Shown here piece by piece: positions 14,045-26,785 of a DNA stretch of 64,000 nt (the stretch's first letter is position 1; the number at the start of each line of letters is the position of its first letter). Below the pieces are notes generated by a model. The model saw only the letters and a list, made by a program, of their open reading frames with translations. It did not search any database and was not told where the DNA came from. The position numbers and the translations under genes are program-made. This DNA is from a phage, in the sequence record OZ413487.1, one strand, 5' to 3'.

Positions 14045-14640
14045 TACTTGAAAATTCTTGGCATATCAAGTATAAGGGGGATTTCTAAAATGGATTTCCT
14101 CCTTTTGATATTTCACCGGGCCGGATATTTTAAAATTCTTAGAAAATCAGAAAATGGATCGAAAACTAAAATGGATTTTTCAGAGTAGGCGCGACAAGCT
14201 GAATAACTCATCCTATCGTTTGCACCATATTCCAGGCCACCATTATAGATTTCCCACACATGCTAACCTCCCTCTACTAGAACTTCCTCCACTTACCCTT
14301 GACCTTCTATGGTAACAATCTAACCGCTATCTTGAAGTTGCTGTGCAGCTTTCCAGGTACTCGATCTACTTTTCATTTCAGGGCTTGGATTTTCTGAAAA
14401 TTTTTCTCGATAAATTTCTCAGTACTCGATCTGTTTTTCGTTTTCTGAATCGGATTTTCTGGAAATCGTTCCGGCTCTCGACCTGAAATTTTTGGGGACG
14501 AAATCGATTTTTCGTTTTCAGAAATGGATTTTTAAAATTTCTATATGGGAATATTTTATGGGATACTGTTTTATAGGAAATTGTTACGGAGGGTAATTAG
14601 CGTGCTAATTAAATTTATTAAATGCGAGGAGTTCTCATTT
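14045..14640. repeat. AT-rich iteron array (AAATGGATTT, GGATTTTCTG, TACTCGATCT units; 64-bp tandem at 14351-14478)
   Basis: Direct read: repeated decamers and two ~64-bp tandem units; no credible ORF. Confidence 0.6.
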
Positions 14641-15265: not shown

Positions 15266-15315
15266 ACCCTACAAGGTGAACAACACCGCACTAACCAGTA
15301 AAGAGGATAAATTTA

Positions 15316-15512
15316 TGAACGCATACGGGATCAAAGTACGTCGCAACACTCGCCAGGTGGTCACCAATCAAGTGATTTGCCGGGTGGATGTAACCATCAA
15401 CAACGGGCAAGGCCTTTATAAATTTCGTCGCGGTCATAGCTATACCCTGCAACAGCTTAATCGTTGCGCCCTGACAAAAGGTCAGATCAACCATTGGTTT
15501 AATAAAAAATAA
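15316..15512 (+). CDS. hypothetical basic protein
   Basis: ORF track 15237..15512; start moved to ATG after AGAGGA RBS. Confidence 0.4.
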
Positions 15513-15515
15513 GTA

Positions 15516-15544
15516 TTGACATACAGTCCGACACCAAATACACT
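15516..15544 (+). promoter_or_regulatory. sigma70-like promoter (TTGACA-17-TACACT)
   Basis: Precedes gene at 15577. Confidence 0.5.
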
Positions 15545-15576
15545 AAAAGCACAAAAGACACTAAGAGGATAAAATC

Positions 15577-15975
15577 ATGAAAACCACTACCTTTAATTTT
15601 GATAATGCAGACTTTTCTTTTTCTGATGTCAAGAACTGCCGCCGTGATCGTGGATTTTACAAGGCTTATAATCTGGTGGGCCTGGACGATGACAATAATT
15701 TGCACGAAGTAGCTGAGATCCGGTATTATGCCGCCGCCAGCGGTAACACTAACTACTGCGTTTTTTGGATACACGACAACAAGAACAATAAGTACGGTTA
15801 TACTGGTGGCAAGGCTAGCGGTCACGGTTATGATAAAGCCAACGCTGCACTTGAAAGCGCATTAAATGCCATGGGAATCACTGCCGACGGCTGGATCTAT
15901 GAAGAAGAGTTTTTGGCGGCACTTGCTGCCCACCTGGGCTATAAAAAGCACATTGTAACATGCGCCCACGAATAA
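15577..15975 (+). CDS. hypothetical protein
   Basis: ORF track; AGAGGA RBS. Confidence 0.5.
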   Translation: MKTTTFNFDNADFSFSDVKNCRRDRGFYKAYNLVGLDDDNNLHEVAEIRYYAAASGNTNYCVFWIHDNKNNKYGYTGGKASGHGYDKANAALESALNAMGITADGWIYEEEFLAALAAHLGYKKHIVTCAHE

Positions 15976-15986
15976 AAAAAAAATTA

Positions 15987-16014
15987 TTGACACGCTGCAA
16001 AATTCAAGTAAACT
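15987..16014 (+). promoter_or_regulatory. sigma70-like promoter (TTGACA-16-TAAACT)
   Basis: Precedes gene at 16063. Confidence 0.5.
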
Positions 16015-16062
16015 AGGCACAAAAGGCGGGAATGTTTCCCGCCAACACGAAGGAAAAAGATC

Positions 16063-16458
16063 ATGAATAAAAACGTACGCCGCATCATGAACGAACTGGC
16101 AAACGATGAAAAAATTATTGATATGCATTTGGTCAACATTTGCCGCCGTTGTGTAACATATAACAACCGCGCCGCAAAAGCGCGTGAGATGAACGCAAAA
16201 GGCACCTTAAAGCCCTTTCAGGTGGTTGTAAAATCTATGACCAGTGCAGCAGGCCAGGCGCATGACCACAACAACGGGAGCACTAATATTGATCCATCTT
16301 ACGTAATGAAACGGATCCGGACTTGCAAGAATAAAGAGCAGGTGTATAACGTCATAGATTGGCTGGACTCCCTGGGTGACGTGGTTTACAATAGGTTTTC
16401 TGCAGCTATTGAAATTCAGTTAGACAGGTTGGACGGGAAAGTACTGAAAACTTACTGA
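16063..16458 (+). CDS. hypothetical protein
   Basis: ORF track; AAGGAAAAAGA RBS region. Confidence 0.5.
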   Translation: MNKNVRRIMNELANDEKIIDMHLVNICRRCVTYNNRAAKAREMNAKGTLKPFQVVVKSMTSAAGQAHDHNNGSTNIDPSYVMKRIRTCKNKEQVYNVIDWLDSLGDVVYNRFSAAIEIQLDRLDGKVLKTY

Positions 16459-16460
16459 GT

Positions 16461-16506
16461 TTATTTTTAGATGGCCTTGACTCCAGGGCCATCAATAAAG
16501 TAAACT
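16461..16506 (+). promoter_or_regulatory. repeated hairpin/promoter element, copy 1
   Basis: GATGGCC-TTGACTCCAG-GGCCATC inverted repeat enclosing TTGACT, then TAAACT 18 nt downstream; sits directly after a stop codon. Confidence 0.55.
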
Positions 16507-16538
16507 AATCCCAGTTAAGCGAAAAAGGAGGCTTGAAG

Positions 16539-16658
16539 ATGAGCACTACACGCCAGCACACAAAGGTAACTATTATCGTTTGCATCATTGGTTATATCCT
16601 GGCGCAAATGTTGATGGGTAGCGCTAACGGTGTCGCAAAATTTTTCTTAAACTTTTAA
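16539..16658 (+). CDS. hypothetical small hydrophobic peptide (39 aa)
   Basis: ATG after AAAAAGGAGG RBS; hydrophobic core IIVCIIGYILAQMLMG. Confidence 0.3.
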   Translation: MSTTRQHTKVTIIVCIIGYILAQMLMGSANGVAKFFLNF

Positions 16659-16659
16659 T

Positions 16660-16687
16660 TGACAAGCTAACTTAGATCAGTATACTA
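16660..16687 (+). promoter_or_regulatory. sigma70-like promoter (TTGACA-16-TATACT)
   Basis: Precedes gene at 16736. Confidence 0.55.
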
Positions 16688-16735
16688 AACACATAAACGG
16701 GAAAACTTCCCAGAACACCAAAAGGAGAAAACATT

Positions 16736-17086
16736 ATGAATACTTCCATCACTATGACCGCCGAAGAAAAAGCCCTGCAGATCGCCGCTCTGAAAAAACA
16801 GATTGCAGAACTTGAAGACAAGATCGACAATTTTGAAATCGACGAAGACAAATACGACGATAAATATGATGAATGGTTGGACGAGATCTACGGCGAAATT
16901 ATGATCGGAAACATTTCTTTTCTTCCGTCGCGTATCCTCAAGGAGCTAGATCCTATCGCTTACCGCTGCGGATTTAGCGACTACATCGACAGCCTGGATA
17001 TTGAGGACGATGAAGAATACCAGGAATTGCAGACAGAGCTTGAAGAAGTGAAAGAAGAGCTTGCAGAACTGGAAGAAAACGAGTAA
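16736..17086 (+). CDS. hypothetical acidic coiled-coil protein
   Basis: ORF track; AAAGGAGA RBS; Glu/Asp-rich. Confidence 0.5.
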   Translation: MNTSITMTAEEKALQIAALKKQIAELEDKIDNFEIDEDKYDDKYDEWLDEIYGEIMIGNISFLPSRILKELDPIAYRCGFSDYIDSLDIEDDEEYQELQTELEEVKEELAELEENE

Positions 17087-17088
17087 GA

Positions 17089-17134
17089 TTATTTTTAGAT
17101 GGCCTTGACTCCAGGGCCATCAATAAAGTAAACT
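17089..17134 (+). promoter_or_regulatory. repeated hairpin/promoter element, copy 2
   Basis: Identical to copy 1 over ~45 nt. Confidence 0.55.
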
Positions 17135-17175
17135 TTATACTGTTAACACTGAACTAATGCATAGGAGTTAAAACC

Positions 17176-17421
17176 ATGGCAGCACTAATCACCAAATATT
17201 ATGCCCCTACCAACACCAAAAGCGCCCGTATCATGGTAAAAGGCTTCGGACGTAAAAAGGTTTACACTTGGGATTATTCCCTAGACATGGAAGACAACTA
17301 CACCAACGCGATGACCGATTTTATTAATGAACTAAATAAGCAGATCTTAACCAATTATAAGGTGACCGACATCGCCTATGTTGGGGAAGGTGGGATCTGT
17401 TTTGTCGGTATTGTCAAATAA
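17176..17421 (+). CDS. hypothetical protein
   Basis: ORF track; AGGAG RBS. Confidence 0.5.
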   Translation: MAALITKYYAPTNTKSARIMVKGFGRKKVYTWDYSLDMEDNYTNAMTDFINELNKQILTNYKVTDIAYVGEGGICFVGIVK

Positions 17422-17430
17422 GCTGTTTTT

Positions 17431-17470
17431 TCGGTGGTCCTGGTGGCAGGGCCATCTATAAAGATAGTTT
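17431..17470 (+). promoter_or_regulatory. repeated element, degenerate copy
   Basis: Shares CAGGGCCATC-nATAAAG 3' half with copies 1-3; 5' half diverged. Confidence 0.35.
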
Positions 17471-17496
17471 ATTAACACCATGAAAGGAGAAAGTAC

Positions 17497-17850
17497 ATGA
17501 TCAGCGGGGCTAGTTTTATTATTGGCGCTATTGCTACAGCTTTAATTGTAAACAAGATCCAGGATAAAAAGGAAAGAGGAAGTACCGCCCTTGCAGAATA
17601 TCCATTTTGGACATTCAACGATAACGAAGATTATATTATAAAGTATAAAAATAAAGAAGGTGACCAAGTAACACCGCGACCGATCCCGGCTTACAAGATG
17701 CAGGAAACACTATACCGCTTGGAGGCAGGGGGCGCAAAAATTGTGGACTTTTGGGGATACGATCACACAGATCAGGAAGTTATAAAGCGCCGTATCCGGG
17801 CTATTCAGGCCAATATTGAAGTTAGCAAGGGGGGAATATATGAAGATTAA
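17497..17850 (+). CDS. hypothetical protein with N-terminal hydrophobic segment
   Basis: ORF track; AAAGGAGA RBS. Confidence 0.5.
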   Translation: MISGASFIIGAIATALIVNKIQDKKERGSTALAEYPFWTFNDNEDYIIKYKNKEGDQVTPRPIPAYKMQETLYRLEAGGAKIVDFWGYDHTDQEVIKRRIRAIQANIEVSKGGIYED

Positions 17851-18037
17851 TTTTGAGAAAATTGTAAAGCGATCTCATGATTCCGAAGAGCTGCCGGAAC
17901 GCCGCCAGCGTAACAATAAACTGAATAAGCCAAAAAGATTTGGGAAGATCTGGCGGAATCATTATGATCGTAAATTGCCGGGCCTCCTTTTGGAACGTGA
18001 ACGGCAGGCGGAACGATACCGCCACAAAGGCAACTAA
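17840..18037 (+). CDS. hypothetical basic protein
   Basis: ORF track 17816..18037; start moved to ATG after AAGGGGGGA. Confidence 0.4.
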   Translation: MKINFEKIVKRSHDSEELPERRQRNNKLNKPKRFGKIWRNHYDRKLPGLLLERERQAERYRHKGN

Positions 18038-18045
18038 CAACCAAC

Positions 18046-18074
18046 GCCCCGCCATCGTGCGGGGCTTTTTATTT
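18046..18074 (+). terminator. intrinsic terminator
   Basis: GCCCCGC-CATCGT-GCGGGGC followed by TTTTTATTT. Confidence 0.7.
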
Positions 18075-18195
18075 CTACCCTACGAATAGCGCCCCTGGTT
18101 GGCCCCACAACGCCCTAAAAGCCCCCTACCCATGCAATCCCATTTCTTAACCTGAAAACATCGTCAAAGGCTGTTTTAAAGCGTTAAAAATATTG

Positions 18196-18223
18196 TTGAC
18201 ATCTAAAATATTCTAGATATACT
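18196..18223 (+). promoter_or_regulatory. sigma70-like promoter (TTGACA-16-TATACT)
   Basis: Precedes gene at 18259. Confidence 0.55.
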
Positions 18224-18258
18224 AATCACATCAAAGCGAGAAGTAAGGAGTAAACGCC

Positions 18259-18519
18259 ATGCGTAAATTAAAAAATTTTGATAAAGTTGATATTGTCCTG
18301 AATAATTTTTACTACTGCAATAACAAGGCCGTTTGGTGGCGTGATAGTTCCACCGATAAAGTCAAGGCGCGCTTTCTCCAGGGGCACTGGCAAGGCCGCC
18401 CAGTGATTAAAATCATGGGGCAATTGGTAGCGTTTAAAAATTGCCGCCGTGTTGATGACGTTGAAGAGATTTTAAACATTTTGCGCCACAATAATTTAAA
18501 AAATAGTGTTGACAAGTAA
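18259..18519 (+). CDS. hypothetical protein
   Basis: ORF track; AAGGAG RBS. Confidence 0.5.
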   Translation: MRKLKNFDKVDIVLNNFYYCNNKAVWWRDSSTDKVKARFLQGHWQGRPVIKIMGQLVAFKNCRRVDDVEEILNILRHNNLKNSVDK

Positions 18520-18536
18520 ATCTCAATAAGTATAAT
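18509..18536 (+). promoter_or_regulatory. sigma70-like promoter (TTGACA-16-TATAAT)
   Basis: Consensus hexamers; precedes gene at 18594. Confidence 0.6.
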
Positions 18537-18593
18537 TAAAAACACAGGCGGGAAAACTTCCCGCCACTAACAAAGAAAACAGGAGAAAATATC

Positions 18594-19217
18594 ATGACCA
18601 CCGTTAACATTACCACAGGTTACAATTTATCTTTCGACGTGCTGACCGACGAACAAAAAGAAAAAGCCGTGGAAATGGTCCGCGAAAGAGAAGAACACAG
18701 CGGGGATAACTTTTTTGCAGAAAGTGTAATTGAGTACTATAAAGAATATGTTTTTCCAGAGTACGGCCTTGAAGATACCGATGTACATTGGTCAGGCTTT
18801 TGGTGCCAGGGTGACGGCGCGTCAATCAGTGCGGAAAACGTGGATTTAGAAAAATTCTTGCGTAAAGTCAAGTCTCTGACTAAATTCCGCTCAATTCGTC
18901 ACTTGTTCGGCACAATGCACGATGGCGAGTTATCCGCAAGTGTTGAGCGTGATCCATATAGCCGCTATAGTCACGAAAACACTGTAAACGGATACATCGA
19001 TACTACATGGCTAGACCTGACCACCAAACAAGAAAACAAAGTGGAAGATCTGGAAGAGCTGATCACCGAGACGGTACGGGAGTTATCCCGCAAGGTTTAC
19101 GTAGACCTGGAGGAGGCCTATCTTGAACAATTCACCGCCGAAAACTTGATCGGCCTTATCGAGGCCAATGATTGGCGGTTTGATGTCGATGAACACGGTA
19201 AGATGACTTTTTCATAA
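18594..19217 (+). CDS. hypothetical protein
   Basis: ORF track; CAGGAGAAAA RBS. Confidence 0.5.
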   Translation: MTTVNITTGYNLSFDVLTDEQKEKAVEMVREREEHSGDNFFAESVIEYYKEYVFPEYGLEDTDVHWSGFWCQGDGASISAENVDLEKFLRKVKSLTKFRSIRHLFGTMHDGELSASVERDPYSRYSHENTVNGYIDTTWLDLTTKQENKVEDLEELITETVRELSRKVYVDLEEAYLEQFTAENLIGLIEANDWRFDVDEHGKMTFS

Positions 19218-19225
19218 ATAAAGTG

Positions 19226-19253
19226 TTGCAATAACCTAAAAACCTGCTATATT
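19226..19253 (+). promoter_or_regulatory. sigma70-like promoter (TTGCAA-16-TATATT)
   Basis: Precedes gene at 19306. Confidence 0.45.
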
Positions 19254-19305
19254 AAAACTCAAGGGGCAAGACGTTTGCCCCACACAAAACAAAGAGGTAA
19301 ACATT

Positions 19306-19686
19306 ATGAAAAACACTACTAAAGCTATTGACACCGTTATGTTTAACCTGGTTACATTCCGTGAAGATATGAAAGATCTTCCACGTGAAACAGTGTGCGA
19401 TCACATTGAAAACTATCGCAAACTAATCAAAGAGTTGCCTTTAAAACGTGACCAGTATGCGGCTAACGCTATGCTTAACGCCATGATCAAAAAGATGATT
19501 CAGTGTGATTTAACTCTGGCCTATGATTATGCAGGTGGTCGTTTTGCAGTATACAATCAGCCCGTGCCTGGTATGAGCACCACCGAAGAATTGCACGCGT
19601 TAAATCTGAAACAAGATGTATGGGATAACATGCCCCGCGTGGTGGTGTGGGCAGAAAGCGGAAAGATTTACGGCGATAATTTTTAA
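19306..19686 (+). CDS. hypothetical protein
   Basis: ORF track; AAAGAGG RBS. Confidence 0.5.
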   Translation: MKNTTKAIDTVMFNLVTFREDMKDLPRETVCDHIENYRKLIKELPLKRDQYAANAMLNAMIKKMIQCDLTLAYDYAGGRFAVYNQPVPGMSTTEELHALNLKQDVWDNMPRVVVWAESGKIYGDNF

Positions 19687-19696
19687 TCAGGTAACA

Positions 19697-19722
19697 GGCG
19701 GCATATTTGCCGCCTTATTGTT
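19697..19722 (+). terminator. intrinsic terminator
   Basis: GGCGGCA-TATT-TGCCGCC followed by TTATTGTT. Confidence 0.6.
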
Positions 19723-19750
19723 AAACAGAACTGCAAAAGAGGTACATAGA

Positions 19751-20122
19751 ATGGAATTTATTATTTTGGCTGTAGTAGTTGCCTTGTTCAACGCCTGGAT
19801 CGCTGGCAAGATAGGTAGATCCGCTTTTCTATGGTTTGTTATATCTATTTTCCTGGGAGTGGTTGCAACTATTGTATTGGTTATCCTTGCAATTGTTGAC
19901 AAGGGCGATAATAGAAAGGGTAAAGTGTTTTCCGACCTGTATGACGCACAAACGTTTGTCAACGCCTATTATAGTGATCTTCCAGTCTCCCTACGCTGCA
20001 GCCTGGCACAACAGGTTTTTGATGAGGCTAAAACCAGAGACCAAGCCCATGAGATATGTTTAACTGAAGCGGATCGCCTATTTGAGAGGAATAGAAAATA
20101 TGTGGACCAGCCGTTTAAATAA
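19751..20122 (+). CDS. hypothetical membrane protein
   Basis: ORF track 19616..20122; ATG 19751 after AAAGAGG; two hydrophobic helices. Confidence 0.45.
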   Translation: MEFIILAVVVALFNAWIAGKIGRSAFLWFVISIFLGVVATIVLVILAIVDKGDNRKGKVFSDLYDAQTFVNAYYSDLPVSLRCSLAQQVFDEAKTRDQAHEICLTEADRLFERNRKYVDQPFK

Positions 20123-20465
20123 CGCCACGTTAATTAATCCCTTTAGTGAAGATTTGAAGCCAGCCGCCTGGCGTGACGGATTCAATAACGAACGCTTTAT
20201 TTTCAGGCCTGATCTTGAGGAATTTTATAACAATGGATCGAACAACAGCGGAGATAATTTTTCTTGTGGTGTGCGTGGTGATAGGACTCCTGGGGGCCAT
20301 TGTAAACCACGTCACTACTAACAGGAGGGAAGGGGGAGACGATGACAACCAAAGATAAGCCATGCGCTGATAAGGTGCGCCGTGTTATGGTATGGCTTGA
20401 GATTATCGCCCTTGAAATATTGTTAGGCGTAGGGATGTACTTTATCGCTGTAAGTAACTAAGAGC

Positions 20466-20494
20466 GGCCCCCGATCATGGGGGCCTATCTTTTA
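20466..20494 (+). terminator. intrinsic terminator
   Basis: GGCCCCC-GATCAT-GGGGGCC followed by TATCTTTT. Confidence 0.65.
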
Positions 20495-20515
20495 AAAAAT
20501 TTTTCTTCCGGGGTG

Positions 20516-20544
20516 TTGCAATCCGGTCCGGAATGTGGATAATA
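20516..20544 (+). promoter_or_regulatory. sigma70-like promoter (TTGCAA-17-ATAATA)
   Basis: Precedes gene at 20600. Confidence 0.45.
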
Positions 20545-20599
20545 ACAATCAACGGGGAGCTAATCCCCACCACCACAAAAACCAGAAAGGAGAAACAAA

Positions 20600-20800
20600 A
20601 TGAGCAACAATATCCGCGTTATTAACTTCAAAAAAGAAGAAAAAATTGCCGTGCTGATTGACGGTCAAGAAATCTTCAAGGGCGACTATGAAGATCATCA
20701 AACGGCGATTAGTATCACTCGCGTGATTGGTTATCATAATTTCTACCCCCAAGGCGCTGAGGCAGCAGTTAAACGAATCAAAGAGATTGTAGGCCTGTAA
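20600..20800 (+). CDS. hypothetical protein
   Basis: ORF track; AAAGGAGAAA RBS. Confidence 0.5.
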   Translation: MSNNIRVINFKKEEKIAVLIDGQEIFKGDYEDHQTAISITRVIGYHNFYPQGAEAAVKRIKEIVGL

Positions 20801-20803
20801 AAT

Positions 20804-20848
20804 TTATTTTTAGATGGCCTTGACTTCAGGGCCATCGATAAAGTAAAT
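20804..20848 (+). promoter_or_regulatory. repeated hairpin/promoter element, copy 3
   Basis: Same element as 16461 and 17089 with 2 substitutions (TTGACTTCAG loop, GATAAAG). Confidence 0.55.
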
Positions 20849-20893
20849 TTAAACCCTGTTAAAATACCACGCAGTTAACAAGGAGTGATAGAC

Positions 20894-21193
20894 ATGTTTA
20901 TCCAGGCTAATAATCTTTATTTCTTTGATGGTCAGATCGTAGATGGTGTGGAAGTGGAGATCACCGGGTGCCCTGGCGGTCAGGCTATGACTTTTCGGAA
21001 TAATGCCTTTGATGATTCTCATATCGTTATAAGAATGGAAGTTACGAAGCTGGACGACAAGAAAACACTTATTGACTATTCTGTGAAAGATCATCCAGAC
21101 TACCGCATGATCCATGGTGATTTGTGCATTGTTGACCGTGACAAGGTGGGCGGCATTGTGATCGCTATTGTGAACGATGTTTTCTCAAACTAA
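20894..21193 (+). CDS. hypothetical protein
   Basis: ORF track 20885..21193; ATG 20894 after AAGGAG. Confidence 0.5.
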   Translation: MFIQANNLYFFDGQIVDGVEVEITGCPGGQAMTFRNNAFDDSHIVIRMEVTKLDDKKTLIDYSVKDHPDYRMIHGDLCIVDRDKVGGIVIAIVNDVFSN

Positions 21194-21210
21194 TTTCAGC
21201 AGGCGATTTT

Positions 21211-21561
21211 ATGAAAGTCAAACTATATTACCTTAATGAGCTTAACCCCCTTGCCCAGGTCCGCGCCCTAGCTAATACCTTGATTTGTGAGAAATCTGTA
21301 TATTGTGTTGAGCTTAACGCCATGCGTGAACGTCTCAAAGGTGGTTACTTTGACATCCATGCTGCAATCAACGGCCTGAATATGGAATTTATACGCTTAC
21401 GTAACAGCCGCCGGAATCTGGCAAGAATGGAACAAGATCCGGCCCACCTTCGTAAACTGGTTATTGAAAATCATCTGATGTTTAATGCCGAGGGGGATTA
21501 TTACCATTTTCACCGCAAACGCTGGTACCGTGGCGGCAATACAGGCAAGAATGCAAAATAA
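21211..21561 (+). CDS. hypothetical protein
   Basis: ORF track. Confidence 0.5.
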   Translation: MKVKLYYLNELNPLAQVRALANTLICEKSVYCVELNAMRERLKGGYFDIHAAINGLNMEFIRLRNSRRNLARMEQDPAHLRKLVIENHLMFNAEGDYYHFHRKRWYRGGNTGKNAK

Positions 21562-21598
21562 GGCCCCTAGCAGGGCCTGCAGCAATATAATCACATAA

Positions 21599-21630
21599 AG
21601 GCCATGCGGTTGCATGGCCTTTATTATTTT
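21599..21630 (+). terminator. intrinsic terminator
   Basis: AGGCCATGC-GGTT-GCATGGCCT followed by TTATTATTTT. Confidence 0.7.
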
Positions 21631-21678
21631 GGCGTTACAACGGCATACGGGGCGCTTAAAAAATTTTTAAAGAAGTAC

Positions 21679-24134: not shown

Positions 24135-24505
24135 ATCCCTGTATGGATCGCCAGTGGTGCGCATAATAGGTATTATGTTAAATTGCCCGTAATGATAACA
24201 GTTCTCACAATGATAGGTATTCTCATTCATCCACACAAAATAGGTTGCAAATGTTGTGCCACTGTGTGAACGGCCTGGCCTATTAATTTCTCTCACTGCC
24301 TCGATATTTGAGAATTGTTATCCCTGTATGGATCGCCAGTGGTGCGCATAATAGGTATTATGTTAAATTGCCCGTAATGATAACAGTTCTCACAATGATA
24401 GGTATTCTCATTCATCCACACAAAATAGGTTGCAAATGTTGTGCCACTGTGTGAACGGCCTGGCCTATTAATTTCTCTCACTGCCTCGATATTTGAGAAT
24501 TGTTA
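24135..24505. repeat. tandem duplication, two ~185-bp units
   Basis: Unit beginning ATCCCTGTATGGATCGCCAGTGGTGCGCATAATAGG... occurs twice head-to-tail, essentially identical. Confidence 0.85.
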
Positions 24506-25564
24506 TAAGAATGAGAAGTATTCCCATTCCGTCCGCCTGGCAGCACTCCTGTAGGTCCTGCAAGGACTCTAGCTGAAAGCTAGACCCTTCGGGCCTCCCT
24601 GTAGGTCAGGTCAAAATCGTGGTAGAATTGGGCCTGTTCAGATATTTCTGGCTGACTCTTCAGGTCTGTGTGGGAAAAGCCAACCTCTCCGGCGGGGCAG
24701 GGGGTCATGACGGGAAAATTGCAGGTCAATTAAAAAATTTACGTGGTGTATGAAGCGCTCTTCAGGTAAGGCATGTATTATGGGATGAAACCCTCTTCAG
24801 GCAATGATATTTGTGGGTGTGATATTTGCTGGAAAGCCAGATATGACGGGACTCCCGGCGGGGATGGGGTAGTACAGACAGGGAAAATATGAGAATGTAG
24901 TTGGGGAAATTGATCAGACAGGTAGAGTATGGAATATGTTACAAGTATGTTAAATATGGAGGTTGAATATCTGTAGGATTTGTGTGTAAAATCAAAGACT
25001 TAAGGGGTGTTGTGGTATTTTCTATAAATAATTCAAGTTTAATAGGCAATATTTGTCTCTATCCGCTTTGTGTGGTAAACAGATTCAGATTAGATTGGTT
25101 TACAAGTGTATACATAATATACAAATTAAAGATACAAGAAACCCCCCTCCCCCTTCGGCTACCATTCACCTTTTCCTCTGACTGGTACTTAAACACTTAT
25201 TCAGACTCTTCAGGTTATCACCCATATATCATATGGCAGTGACTGGTGTCCTCCGGCCCCTCTTTCGTCACCCGTCCGCTTCGCCATGCTAATGCCATAG
25301 CCAATGGTTCGGTTGTTCACTCTGTTCACTCAGGTGTATCTCCATACCCCTTCAAACCGAAGAGAACAGAAAACCCGAATTACTCGGTAAAAGAAAAGAG
25401 AAGAACTTAATTTTATCAGGATAGGCAAGAATGTCAAGGCATGACTGCTCACTAAACAAGCAAACAGTCATGTGTGGAAGGTAAGTGATTGTGGTGGTGG
25501 GAAATTTAGTTGAAAGATGTGTTATAGGTGCTCCCAGCACTTTAGCCGGGTAGCTAATTGTGTG

Positions 25565-25846
25565 TCAGTCCAGTGGTTCATCACCTACTTCACTGAAATC
25601 AATGTTCATGGTCTCCTCCCAACCATCAATCTCAGCACCAGAGTAGAGATCTTTAGGACTTACTCCCAAAGCATCAGCAACAGAGTCCATATTTAACACC
25701 TCTGGCAGGTATGATTCATCGAATTCAAGGTAAATCAGGCCACGAGTGTTGTCAGCTCCACCAAATATTTCTATCTTCATGAAATCTCCTCTGGGAATGA
25801 GAGTGTGAACAGGGTTTATACGTTCCAATGCGCTGGAATTATGCAC
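25565..25846 (-). CDS. hypothetical acidic protein
   Basis: ORF track; last gene of the - strand block. Confidence 0.4.
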   Translation of the reverse strand: MHNSSALERINPVHTLIPRGDFMKIEIFGGADNTRGLIYLEFDESYLPEVLNMDSVADALGVSPKDLYSGAEIDGWEETMNIDFSEVGDEPLD

Positions 25847-26473
25847 GTTTGCCTCTTCAGGCCATGCTTCAGCATGAGGAACCTGTGTGGGCTCGGTGCT
25901 TCATAGTCTACCACCCCTGAACTCTTCGTGCTCAGGCATAATAGAGAACCAGATATCTACGATGTCTTCCCACGTCAGGTCATCAGCCTCAGGATCTACC
26001 TGGAGCGAAGATGAAGAATCTTCAGAATCGAAGTTTTCCTCTTGCACTGGCTCAGTCAAGGGACATATAGTCACTCCTTTGGATGTCTCTTCAGATGCAT
26101 GTGTGTTTATCATGTTCCACCCGTGAGTATTCCGGCAACAGCTGCTATGGACGTAATGATCATCAGGATCACCACTAAAACTTCGGACAATGTTCTCATT
26201 GTGTACTCCATATTCTACAAACTATGTGTGGATACTATCACTGGATCGGTAATGTGTCAACAGAAACGCCGCGAGGGTTTGGTTAAAATCCGAGCGTATG
26301 GTGATTTGGGTCAAAACGGACGTGCGTTCTCGCTACGCTCGAAATATGGAGTTGTTTGTAGGGAGCTCTTAAACGCTCTGTAATGAAATTAACTACCCAA
26401 GGTATGCAATCGTGCACCAGACAAAGAAAAGGACGCCACAGAGCGTCCTAGGTGTCTTAAATTTGATATTTTG

Positions 26474-26785
26474 CTATACCCACGAGGGCTTATCAAGGTT
26501 GGAGTAGCTGAAAGGTGTCAAAAGGTGACTGTCAAAATCTCTCAAACTATCCAAATCTTTTTCCTCGTCCTGACACCATCTGTGCCTACATTTGTTGTTG
26601 TAGTGCATGGAATGCATAGCGTTCTGCAACTTAACAGGCACAAGTGATTCAGGAGTAGATAGTATTGTTGGGTATGCCAGAACCACCTCAAACAGTGGAA
26701 ACACATCGAAACTAAAGTCTACCTCTGCAGAGGTTGATGGCATATAGGAGTATTTAGCCGCCTTTGTAGACATAATCCACCTCAC
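26474..26785 (-). CDS. hypothetical protein
   Basis: ORF track. Confidence 0.4.
   Translation of the reverse strand: MRWIMSTKAAKYSYMPSTSAEVDFSFDVFPLFEVVLAYPTILSTPESLVPVKLQNAMHSMHYNNKCRHRWCQDEEKDLDSLRDFDSHLLTPFSYSNLDKPSWV

Follow-up and report, generated by a model that had tools for sequence, protein, structure and literature searches.

Candidate RNase III-type processing hairpins repeated after stop codons in the early region of an rV5-like phage

The early RNase III sites of phage T7 (R0.3, R0.5, R1, R1.1 and R1.3) are validated cleavage signals. They are sense-strand hairpins lying between the cistrons of the polycistronic early mRNA made by host RNA polymerase, and they start at or beside the upstream stop codon. 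They have an upper stem of 9–10 bp with a tetraloop, an asymmetric internal loop (4×5 in most sites, 2×3 in R1) and a lower stem of 5–9 bp with bulges, and the copies inside the one genome are paralogous repeats. A second described system is the promoter-early stem-loops (PeSLs) of the T4-like phages RB49 and phi1 (PMC2839356, PMC4122927). These are repeated intergenic modules of approximately 50–100 bp among small ORFan early genes, with stems that are typically GGGG/CCCC and have been shown to terminate, and with cassettes that are deleted by recombination between copies. Consensus sigma-70 promoters and canonical intrinsic terminators, both intergenic and on the coding strand, are listed for rV5 itself (PMC3606486, Table S4).

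We analysed a 64,000-nucleotide window of sequence record OZ413487.1, from an rV5-like Vequintavirus, a coliphage that is a 136-kb myovirus. The original prediction described a 45-nt element repeated after stop codons, and this was borne out: the exact 45-mer is present at 16461-16505 and 17089-17133, and a third copy with three mismatches at 20804-20848. A 45-mer match of this kind occurred in none of 100 shuffles. A degenerate fourth copy had been placed at 17431; it exists, but a repeat search located it at 17421-17469 (67% identity), so that the predicted start falls inside the copy. The copies and their surroundings are as follows.

15987..16014, + strand: consensus-type sigma-70 promoter (equivalent of rV5 P194), driving the operon with copy 1
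16458..16506, + strand: copy 1 (type A), two-tier hairpin; starting on the final stop-codon base of the ORF at 16063-16458; lower stem 16458-16467/16497-16506, internal loop 16468-16469 × 16494-16496, upper stem 16470-16479/16484-16493, loop 16480-16483
16507..17085, + strand: cassette between copies 1 and 2, with a 39-aa ORF (16539-16658), a consensus promoter (16659-16686) and a 116-aa ORF (16736-17086)
16659..16686, + strand: the promoter in this cassette, consensus-type sigma-70 (equivalent of rV5 P192), upstream of the operon with copies 2 and 4
17086..17134, + strand: copy 2 (type A), two-tier hairpin with the same core sequence as copy 1, starting on the final stop-codon base of the ORF at 16736-17086
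17176..17421, + strand: 81-aa ORF, bracketed by copies 2 and 4
17417..17473, + strand: copy 4 (type B, divergent), overlapping the stop of the 81-aa ORF; 17421-17469 is the core that corresponds to the other copies
17840..18037, + strand: T7 gp1.1-family gene (Pfam PF08200; E 9.5e-11, 42.4 bits against a cutoff of 21), in the operon of copies 2 and 4
18046..18065, + strand: canonical intrinsic terminator (GC stem and T-run), ending the operon with copies 2 and 4
20801..20849, + strand: copy 3 (type A), two-tier hairpin, starting one base past the stop codon of the ORF at 20600-20800

All four copies are on the + strand within the early-gene region, directly 3′ of stop codons (the upstream ORFs stop at 16458, 17086, 17421 and 20800). 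They separate co-oriented cistrons within operons; real promoters precede them and real terminators lie further downstream, and a Shine-Dalgarno (SD) sequence and start codon follow each at 27–44 nt.

On the sense strand only, each copy folds into a lower A/U-rich stem of 10–14 bp, a 2×3 internal loop, a 10-bp upper stem and a tetraloop. The inverted repeat GATGGCC/GGCCATC enclosing TTGACT, as first noted, is present, but its length had been underestimated at 7 bp: the stem has 10 bp (GAUGGCCUUG/CAGGGCCAUC, with one U·G pair) and a 4-nt loop. The lower stem (UUUAUUUU.../...AAAGUAAA) lies beyond the repeat that had been noted. Copy 1 folds with −26.1 kcal/mol (z −6.3), and copies 2 and 3 give z values of −5.5 and −6.5. 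Copy 4 folds with −29.4 kcal/mol (z −7.6) on the + strand, whereas no fold was found on its reverse strand (z −0.57). It lacks TTGAC and yet keeps the geometry through G·U and double compensatory changes, with a lower stem of 14 bp, an upper stem GGUGGUCCUG/CAGGGCCAUC containing two G·U pairs, and the loop GUGG. A covariance model of the rV5 elements scored copies 1 to 4 at 81.8, 82.6, 80.5 and 73.8 bits. A geometric scan of the 64 kb recovered these four two-tier hairpins only, and none on the − strand; shuffled sequences gave 0.25 per strand.

Substitutions among the copies preserve the fold. Within the window, double changes occur at four lower-stem pairs, all three upper-stem changes are wobble-compatible, and pairing is 98.8% compared with 35–56% for slid controls. 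The lower-stem base pair is A-U in copy 3 and G-C in copy 1. The proposed follow-up of examining related genomes yielded 52 copies in 13 genomes, in which 98.1% of pair cells are paired, a value reached by 0 of 500 shuffles. The comparisons as a whole are shallow, covering one genus at 90–98% identity and one distant family. Stem substitutions in the 52 copies are either double and compensatory or G·U-compatible on the + strand only, and in the type A upper stem the only substitutions are C to U opposite G. Variable sites cluster at the base of the stem, at positions 29-30 of the loop and at position 41 of the internal loop. Some unpaired nucleotides do not vary: U15, A42 and U43 (the last two in 52/52 copies) and, in type A, loop A27 and C28.

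The T7 early sites fold into the same geometry, and the resemblance to the elements extends to profile level. When a covariance model derived from the five T7 sites alone was searched against 171 kb, the four elements ranked 1 to 4, all gapless and on the + strand. Copies 1 to 4 scored 28.4, 22.7, 25.9 and 22.5 bits, with E-values of 1.3e-4, 4.8e-3, 6.2e-4 and 5.5e-3 that are rough, the calibration having been brief. The next match was a terminator-like hairpin at 21580-21636 (17.6–18.4 bits on its two strands), and all others scored at most 15.7 bits. In the reverse test, the top three matches of the rV5-only model in the 6.6-kb T7 early region were R1, R0.3 and R1.1, each individually weak (E 0.8–4.6). 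Detection is thus reciprocal. Both groups also have U-A/U·G below the loop-closing pair and AU directly 5′ of the cut position, and the 2×3 internal loop is common to R1 and the elements. The elements differ in that their sequence is only partly similar, their lower stem is longer and perfectly paired, their internal loop is smaller than that of most T7 sites, they carry sigma-70-like hexamers, and they belong to a myovirus, not a T7-like podovirus; their cleavage is a prediction. The gp1.1-family gene at 17840..18037 shows that the phage has early-gene content in common with T7-like phages.

The T7 cut coordinates, which we take to be UAU↓G and AAU↓A, are mutually consistent on the folds. They agree with the R1.1 cleavage products of 47 + 13 nt (PMC4858673). 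In the gapless alignment to the T7-site model the cut position maps onto the invariant NAU↓AAAG of the elements, giving the following predictions.

16496..16497, + strand: predicted RNase III scissile bond of copy 1 (NAU↓AAAG)
17124/17125, + strand: predicted equivalent bond of copy 2
17459/17460, + strand: predicted equivalent bond of copy 4
20839/20840, + strand: predicted equivalent bond of copy 3

Type A has the distal-box UA/UG and conforms to the RNase III substrate rule of at least 11 bp between cut and loop (PMC1540722). Against RNase III, the type B distal box has C-G in place of U·G, and the lowest pair of the upper stem, a G-C, falls in the proximal-box region, where such a pair is potentially inhibitory; T7 R1, however, has C-G at this position.

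Taken together, the elements are probably RNase III-type processing signals in polycistronic early mRNA that also serve as recombination linkers, and they are most likely the same type of site as T7 R0.3–R1.3. RNA processing was the alternative that the original prediction had named as its own refutation, and the T7 folds and reciprocal model matches favour it. Host RNA polymerase would read through the elements from consensus sigma-70 promoters (e.g. 15987, 16659), and a hairpin of approximately 20 bp could fold after the ribosome terminating at the embedded stop codon has departed. RNase III, the presumed enzyme, would bind the upper stem, where the U-A/U·G pairs match the canonical distal box, and cut within the internal loop, on its 3′ side and after the invariant AU. 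The operon RNA would thereby be split into mono- or dicistronic mRNAs, the upstream product ending in a protective 3′ hairpin and the downstream product starting 27–44 nt before its start codon. Being near-identical direct repeats, the copies in addition act as substrates for homologous recombination, as a natural cassette deletion and concerted evolution show. A literature search for transcript-end or cleavage data in any Vequintavirus found none.

The elements could instead be PeSL-like composites of an early promoter and an attenuator/terminator stem-loop, with a main evolutionary role as a homology patch for shuffling ORFan cassettes. We consider this unlikely, although their anatomy fits the published description (PMC2839356): an AT-rich tract with a stop codon, sigma-70-like boxes overlapped by a G-T-containing stem-loop, an SD sequence and a start. 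Neighbouring rV5 genes have RB49 homologs, and annotators of phage Murica called two copies terminators. Recombination between copies is also evident. In phage ECP32 the cassette 16507..17085 is precisely absent, and what remains at the junction is a single element with the left flank of copy 1 and the right flank of copy 2; concerted evolution is seen among copies. PeSLs are however defined by consensus-strength promoters and a variable stem-loop position, whereas here the hairpin is invariant and the promoter-like hexamers are dispensable. Neither the exact two-tier geometry nor the resemblance to T7 RNase III sites is predicted by the PeSL description, and intrinsic termination is itself unlikely because the hairpin has an A/U-rich base and is not followed by a U-tract. 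Homology between PeSL and element sequences was not detected, and blastn found no similarity to the element in phages outside Vequintavirus.

Three related hairpins (X1–X3) occur in the siphovirus CAjan/SD04, a Seuratvirus. They lie in sense orientation directly after stop codons and share with the elements the two-tier geometry, the 10-bp upper stem and lower-stem/flank sequence, (T)AAGTTT..TTAT.. and AATAAG..AACTAAT. They bracket a homolog of the 81-aa gene that lies here between copies 2 and 4, as related hairpins do for homologs of this ORF in Seuratvirus phages. They differ in having three entirely different upper stems, loops of at least 5 nt, internal loops of 2×1 and 3×2, and no TTGAC; they match the rV5 model weakly (17–25 bits), and the T7 model weakly and in X3 only (15.7 bits). 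The suggestion of a small mobile regulatory cassette was therefore partly upheld, in that copies recombine and an unrelated phage has a homologous gene flanked by related hairpins.

The original prediction favoured a promoter with an operator-like palindrome: TTGAC(T/A/G)-18 nt-TAAACT would direct transcription of the following gene, with GATGGCC/GGCCATC as the DNA site bound by a factor. We regard this as quite unlikely. The hexamers are as described, TTGACT within the repeat and TAAACT 18 nt downstream, matching the consensus at 9/12 positions (10/12 in genomes with TTGACA). A T-rich tract lies upstream, the −10 context AAGTAAACTA is identical to that of curated rV5 promoter P194, and the SD and start codon lie 27–44 nt downstream. 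Like rV5 promoters, the elements are intergenic, on the coding strand and carry TTGAC-type hexamers. However, matches of at least 9/12 are common by chance (59 found, 35 expected), the spacer is 18 nt compared with 16–17 nt in nearly all curated rV5 promoters, and the element is not in the curated promoter list (PMC3606486, Table S4). In the elements, spacer, upstream arm and hexamers are equally invariant (7–17% variable columns), whereas in five genuine sigma-70 promoters from the same genomes the hexamers are conserved (3% and 13% variable) and spacers and flanks drift (31–42%). Position 5 of the −10 hexamer covaries with a base 46 nt upstream, and the stem substitutions would give A·C mismatches in DNA or on the other strand. 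The constraint pattern is thus that of a hairpin and not of a promoter, and since type B and the CAjan relatives retain the hairpin without the hexamers, selection maintains something other than a promoter with an operator. The three main copies may have weak promoter activity alongside the hairpin role, given that TTGAC is invariant in 39/39 type A copies and that TTGACA is perfect in some genomes.

RNA-level conservation and strand specificity would also suit a hairpin that acts without RNase III, either as a 3′-end stabiliser that protects from exonucleases in the manner of REP or intercistronic stabiliser hairpins, or as a site for a phage RNA-binding protein or endonuclease co-regulating the cistrons. 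The invariant unpaired nucleotides hint at such sequence-specific recognition. A stabiliser, though, needs no conserved internal loop, fixed 10+10 bp geometry or invariant NAU, and neither version explains why the elements match the profile of validated RNase III sites without gaps, cut-site context and distal box included; the probability of this reading is low. A role as translational operator is unlikely because the element does not overlap the downstream ribosome binding site.

Rho-independent termination, as annotated automatically for two copies in the Murica record, is highly improbable: the elements are stable hairpins directly after stop codons, intergenic and on the coding strand like rV5 terminators, but they have an internal loop, lack the GC-rich stem base and are followed by AAUCCC, UUAUAC, UAAACC or UAUUAA with no U-tract (the missing T-run had been noted correctly), terminator annotations of rV5 and EdH4 omit them, and the region uses canonical GC-stem and T-run terminators.

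A 45-nt sequence is repeated in the window, exactly at 16461 and 17089 and with three mismatches at 20804, and shuffled sequences gave no match. A degenerate fourth copy lies at 17421-17469 and is 67% identical. The 7-bp inverted repeat, the TTGACT hexamer and TAAACT 18 nt downstream were present and a T-run was absent, all as described in the original prediction. The copies also follow stop codons, as had been stated: positions 16458, 17086 and 17421 are the last base of a stop codon, and 20801 is one base past a stop. The next start codon lies 27-44 nt downstream of each element. The full elements are:

16458-16506, + strand: copy 1, type A (with TTGAC)
17086-17134, + strand: copy 2, type A
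17417-17473, + strand: copy 4, type B (divergent; core 17421-17469)
20801-20849, + strand: copy 3, type A

All four copies share an RNA fold on the + strand, consisting of an A/U-rich lower stem of 10-14 bp, a 2x3 internal loop, a 10-bp upper stem with the arms GAUGGCCUUG/CAGGGCCAUC, and a tetraloop. Their folding z-scores range from -5.5 to -7.6. Type B lacks TTGAC; two G·U pairs and a number of double changes preserve its fold, and its reverse strand does not fold (z -0.57). A generic minimum-free-energy scan in sliding windows proved too unspecific (316 windows) and was replaced by a strict geometric scan of the 64 kb. The four elements were the sole two-tier hairpins, with none on the - strand and 0.25 per strand in shuffled sequences. 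A covariance model of the four copies found no further match in the window. An Rfam scan (E up to 10) gave chance-level matches only, such as rhtB at 23 bits against a threshold of 55, and the gathering threshold of no family was reached.

The elements sit among small ORFs of unknown function that form a block on the + strand. This block also contains consensus sigma-70 promoters (TTGACA-16/17-TATAAT-like) and canonical terminators with a GC stem and T-run. The ORFs on either side of each element are co-oriented, with promoters upstream, terminators downstream and neither in between. The elements are therefore on the sense strand of what are predicted to be polycistronic transcripts, as T7-type RNase III signals are. 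Over the surrounding 6 kb, identity is 98% to Escherichia phage MaxTheCat and 90-98% to about 120 records of Vequintavirus (rV5-like phages). Seventeen records labelled 'Campylobacter phage' (MG0656xx) also match window positions 15500-21500 at 90-98% identity; this points to wrong host labels in that data set, or to coliphages contaminating it.

In blastn searches the element was limited to Vequintavirus records, each genome having three type A places and one type B place. It was found neither by blastn of 5,426 E. coli genomes nor by pattern scans of IMG/VR and species-representative bacterial genomes. Of the pair cells in 52 copies (13 genomes), 98.1% were paired, compared with 34-57% in slid controls, and none of 500 shuffles reached this value. 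Double compensatory changes were observed at four lower-stem pairs (G-C/A-U/G·U, U-A/C-G, U-A/G·U/A-U and A-U/U-A). Every upper-stem change was wobble-compatible on the + strand, and the two singletons in type A were both C to U opposite G. Variation was concentrated in the loop (positions 29-30), in the internal loop (position 41) and at the foot of the lower stem. On the 3′ side of the internal loop, A42 and U43 were unchanged in all 52 copies. The elements are conserved sense-strand RNA hairpins. The genes that flank them are patchy accessory genes.

The five T7 early intergenic regions carrying R0.3, R0.5, R1, R1.1 and R1.3 were folded, with site positions after Dunn and Studier 1983. Their geometry was that of the elements: a tetraloop on an upper stem of 9-10 bp, then an asymmetric internal loop, then a lower stem. 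The internal loop of R1 is 2x3, as in the elements, and the T7 lower stems likewise begin at or adjoining the upstream stop codon. The hairpin geometry of RNase III sites, about two helical turns with an upper stem of about 10 bp and an asymmetric internal loop, was present in 4/4 copies. In T7, host RNA polymerase makes a precursor of about 7 kb from the early region, and RNase III cuts this precursor at five sites, R1.1 being cut at a single bond (PMC4858673).

By published rules, RNase III substrates need at least 11 bp from cut to loop and a U-A/U·G distal box under the closing pair (PMC1540722). In the elements, the 10-bp upper stem and 3 loop nucleotides precede the predicted bond, and the count for R1.1 is equal in a gapless alignment; the geometry thus provides at least 11 bp-equivalents between the loop and a scissile bond that is itself predicted. 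The distal box of type A (U25-A32 and U24·G33, under the closing pair G26-C31) is as in R1.1. Type B has U-A followed by C-G, and from this partial match it is predicted to be a weaker site. In RNase III signals, G-C or C-G pairs of the proximal box, next to the cut, are inhibitory. In the putative proximal box of the elements the lowest upper-stem pair is G-C, the next is A-U (in type B, G·U) and the third is U-A; at the place of the G-C, T7 R1 has C-G.

Covariance models were used in both directions. A model built only from rV5-type elements (the rV5 model), run on 6.6 kb of T7 DNA, gave R1, R0.3 and R1.1 as its top three matches, with individually weak E-values. A model built from the five T7 sites alone (the T7 model) was run unfiltered on the window and on 21.7 kb of Seuratvirus CAjan (171 kb searched). 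It ranked the four elements 1-4, with 28.4, 25.9, 22.7 and 22.5 bits (E 1.3e-4 to 5.5e-3), and all four matches were full-length, gapless and on the + strand. Above 15.7 bits there was one further match, a terminator-like hairpin at 21580-21636, which scored 17.6-18.4 bits depending on the strand. The elements thus match a profile of experimentally validated sites. With cuts marked by a slash, the T7 cut position (UAU/G, or AAU/A in R1) aligns to the invariant NAU/AAAG of the elements, and this alignment predicts cuts at 16496/16497, 17124/17125, 17459/17460 and 20839/20840. Literature searches for transcriptome or cleavage data on Vequintavirus found none.

The terminator-like hairpin, the next-best match of the T7 model, is the terminator at 21595-21624, equivalent to rV5 t177, which consists of AUAAAGGCCAUGC...GCAUGGCCUUUAU and a U-rich tail. 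It ends the operon containing copy 3, and its sequence is like a T7 upper stem plus UUUAU.

A gene related to a T7 early gene is also found among the elements:

17840-18037, + strand: T7 gp1.1-family gene (PF08200), 65 aa (Pfam E 9.5e-11)

In T7, gene 1.1 is downstream of the RNase III site R1.1. The presence of this gene in an element-bearing operon means that T7-like phages have early-gene content in common with this phage.

A search for distant synteny through flanking proteins found no syntenic myovirus outside Vequintavirus, and led to CAjan. The 81-aa ORF between copies 2 and 4 (17176-17421) has homologs in Seuratvirus siphoviruses. In CAjan, two hairpins enclose the homolog and the divergent operon contains a third. 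These two-tier hairpins are (locus L016, KP064094):

14390-14450, - strand: CAjan two-tier hairpin
14070-14129, - strand: CAjan two-tier hairpin
15312-15371, + strand: CAjan two-tier hairpin

They were the top matches of the rV5 model on the 21.7 kb of CAjan, at 19-25 bits, and all three are sense-oriented and 3′ of stop codons. They share with the elements both two-tier geometry and the sequence of the lower stem and flanks, but their upper stems are mutually unrelated and they lack sigma-70 hexamers. A MAFFT alignment of the rV5 and CAjan elements was out of structural register and was left out of model building. Related hairpins bracketing a homologous gene in an unrelated phage family suggest mRNA-processing signals tied to the turnover of accessory early genes. 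Aeromonas phage SD04 contains orthologs of CAjan's two bracketing hairpins (locus L018, 1415-1475 and 1736-1795). Nothing convincing was found with either model at the loci of Klebsiella T7-like phage cp31 and Pseudomonas phage KIL1 that contain 81-aa ORF homologs.

The original prediction had offered a small mobile regulatory cassette as one reading, and part of this holds: the copies recombine, and in an unrelated phage a homologous gene lies between related hairpins. In ECP32 (MK883718, locus L014, 5446-5534) the 628-bp interval between copies 1 and 2 is missing, with the loss of a 39-aa ORF, a promoter and the 116-aa ORF at 16736-17086. The junction consists of the copy 1 left flank, one element and the copy 2 right flank, and is a clean deletion by recombination between copies 1 and 2. 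The cores of copies 1 and 2 are identical in 8 of 13 genomes, and orthologous copies are identical in just 17-24% of genome pairs; the sameness of the two copies within genomes indicates gene conversion. The 116-aa ORF, which is acidic and coiled-coil-like, contains a 21-nt tandem repeat (17035-17077, 2 copies, 86% identity) just 5′ of copy 2, and the isim record has a repeat_region annotated at the equivalent position.

Copy-copy recombination that gives cassette insertions and deletions is also a property of PeSLs (promoter-early stem-loops), and the events observed here parallel PeSL-mediated shuffling in RB49/phi1 (PMC2839356). The elements were nevertheless rejected as PeSLs. The defining sigma-70 core of consensus strength is absent, the match being 9-10/12 with an 18-nt spacer. 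The hexamers are missing in type B and in the CAjan relatives, and constraint is not centred on them. As to the terminator or attenuator of a PeSL, a stable hairpin is present, the U-tract is absent and the base is A/U-rich.

The element had also been read as a promoter with an operator-like palindrome. Sigma-70 hexamers are present in 3/4 copies, yet their conservation is opposite to that of real promoters. In five genuine sigma-70 promoters from the same region and genomes, variable columns made up 3% of the -35, 13% of the -10, 33% of the spacer, 31% of the upstream flank and 42% of the downstream flank. Type A elements scored in the same way had 17% variable columns in the -35, the spacer and the -10 alike, 7% upstream and 100% directly beyond the hairpin. 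Position 5 of the "-10" covaries with a base 46 nt upstream, and the element is not among the 33 promoters and 20 terminators curated for rV5. Purifying selection focused on the hexamers, as expected of a promoter with a 16-18 nt spacer, was thus not found, and promoter or operator function is not what is conserved; by these comparisons, it is a sense-strand RNA hairpin that is under selection. Weak promoter activity of type A (TTGAC[T/A/G]-18-TAAACT) is possible.

Automated annotation of Murica labels two copies as terminators. No copy has the GC-rich stem and following U-tract of a Rho-independent terminator, and a terminator scan reported none of them; this reading fails because the sequence after the hairpin is not U-rich. 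A DNA operator was rejected, since stem substitutions are of the G·U type on one strand only and all seven elements, those of CAjan included, are co-oriented with transcription.

The best explanation, and a probable one, is that the hairpins are intercistronic processing signals of the RNase III type and have a second role as recombination linkers. If they are RNase III sites, host RNase III would punctuate the early operons of a large myovirus, as it does in T7. This would account for a repeat that is annotated as a terminator in some records or read as a promoter. The repeats are also behind both the cassette loss and the gene conversion. rV5-like phages have been isolated widely and serve in cocktails for the biocontrol and therapy of E. 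coli O157 and other pathotypes; what is known of their gene expression comes solely from sequence predictions. A broader and distinctly more speculative proposal is that RNase III-site hairpins are portable punctuation-and-linker modules, bracketing small early-gene cassettes and moving between unrelated coliphages (T7-like podoviruses, rV5-like myoviruses and Seuratvirus siphoviruses). They might then provide, ready for use in any E. coli host, signals for processing mRNA and stabilising its 3′ ends, and also homology patches for the insertion, deletion and homogenisation of cassettes. Such modules, if real, would be an RNA-processing counterpart of PeSL-mediated modular shuffling.

Several other features were observed in the window. 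Between 14347 and 14532, where long ORFs are absent, there are three imperfect direct repeats of about 47-57 nt (spacing 65-74 nt, 70-74% identity) and an A/T-rich hairpin of 16 bp (14488-14525). The region could correspond to the rV5 'non-coding' box, or it could be origin- or iteron-like. Near 26000 the GC skew and the coding strand change sign, the cumulative skew reaches its maximum and - strand promoters are clustered (25410-26496), which marks a boundary of divergent transcription units. A perfect tandem duplication of 185 nt (2.0 copies, 100% identity) occupies 24135-24506. Relatives align just 566 nt of a 751-nt query spanning it and therefore carry a single copy, so that the duplication is either specific to this genome or an assembly artefact.
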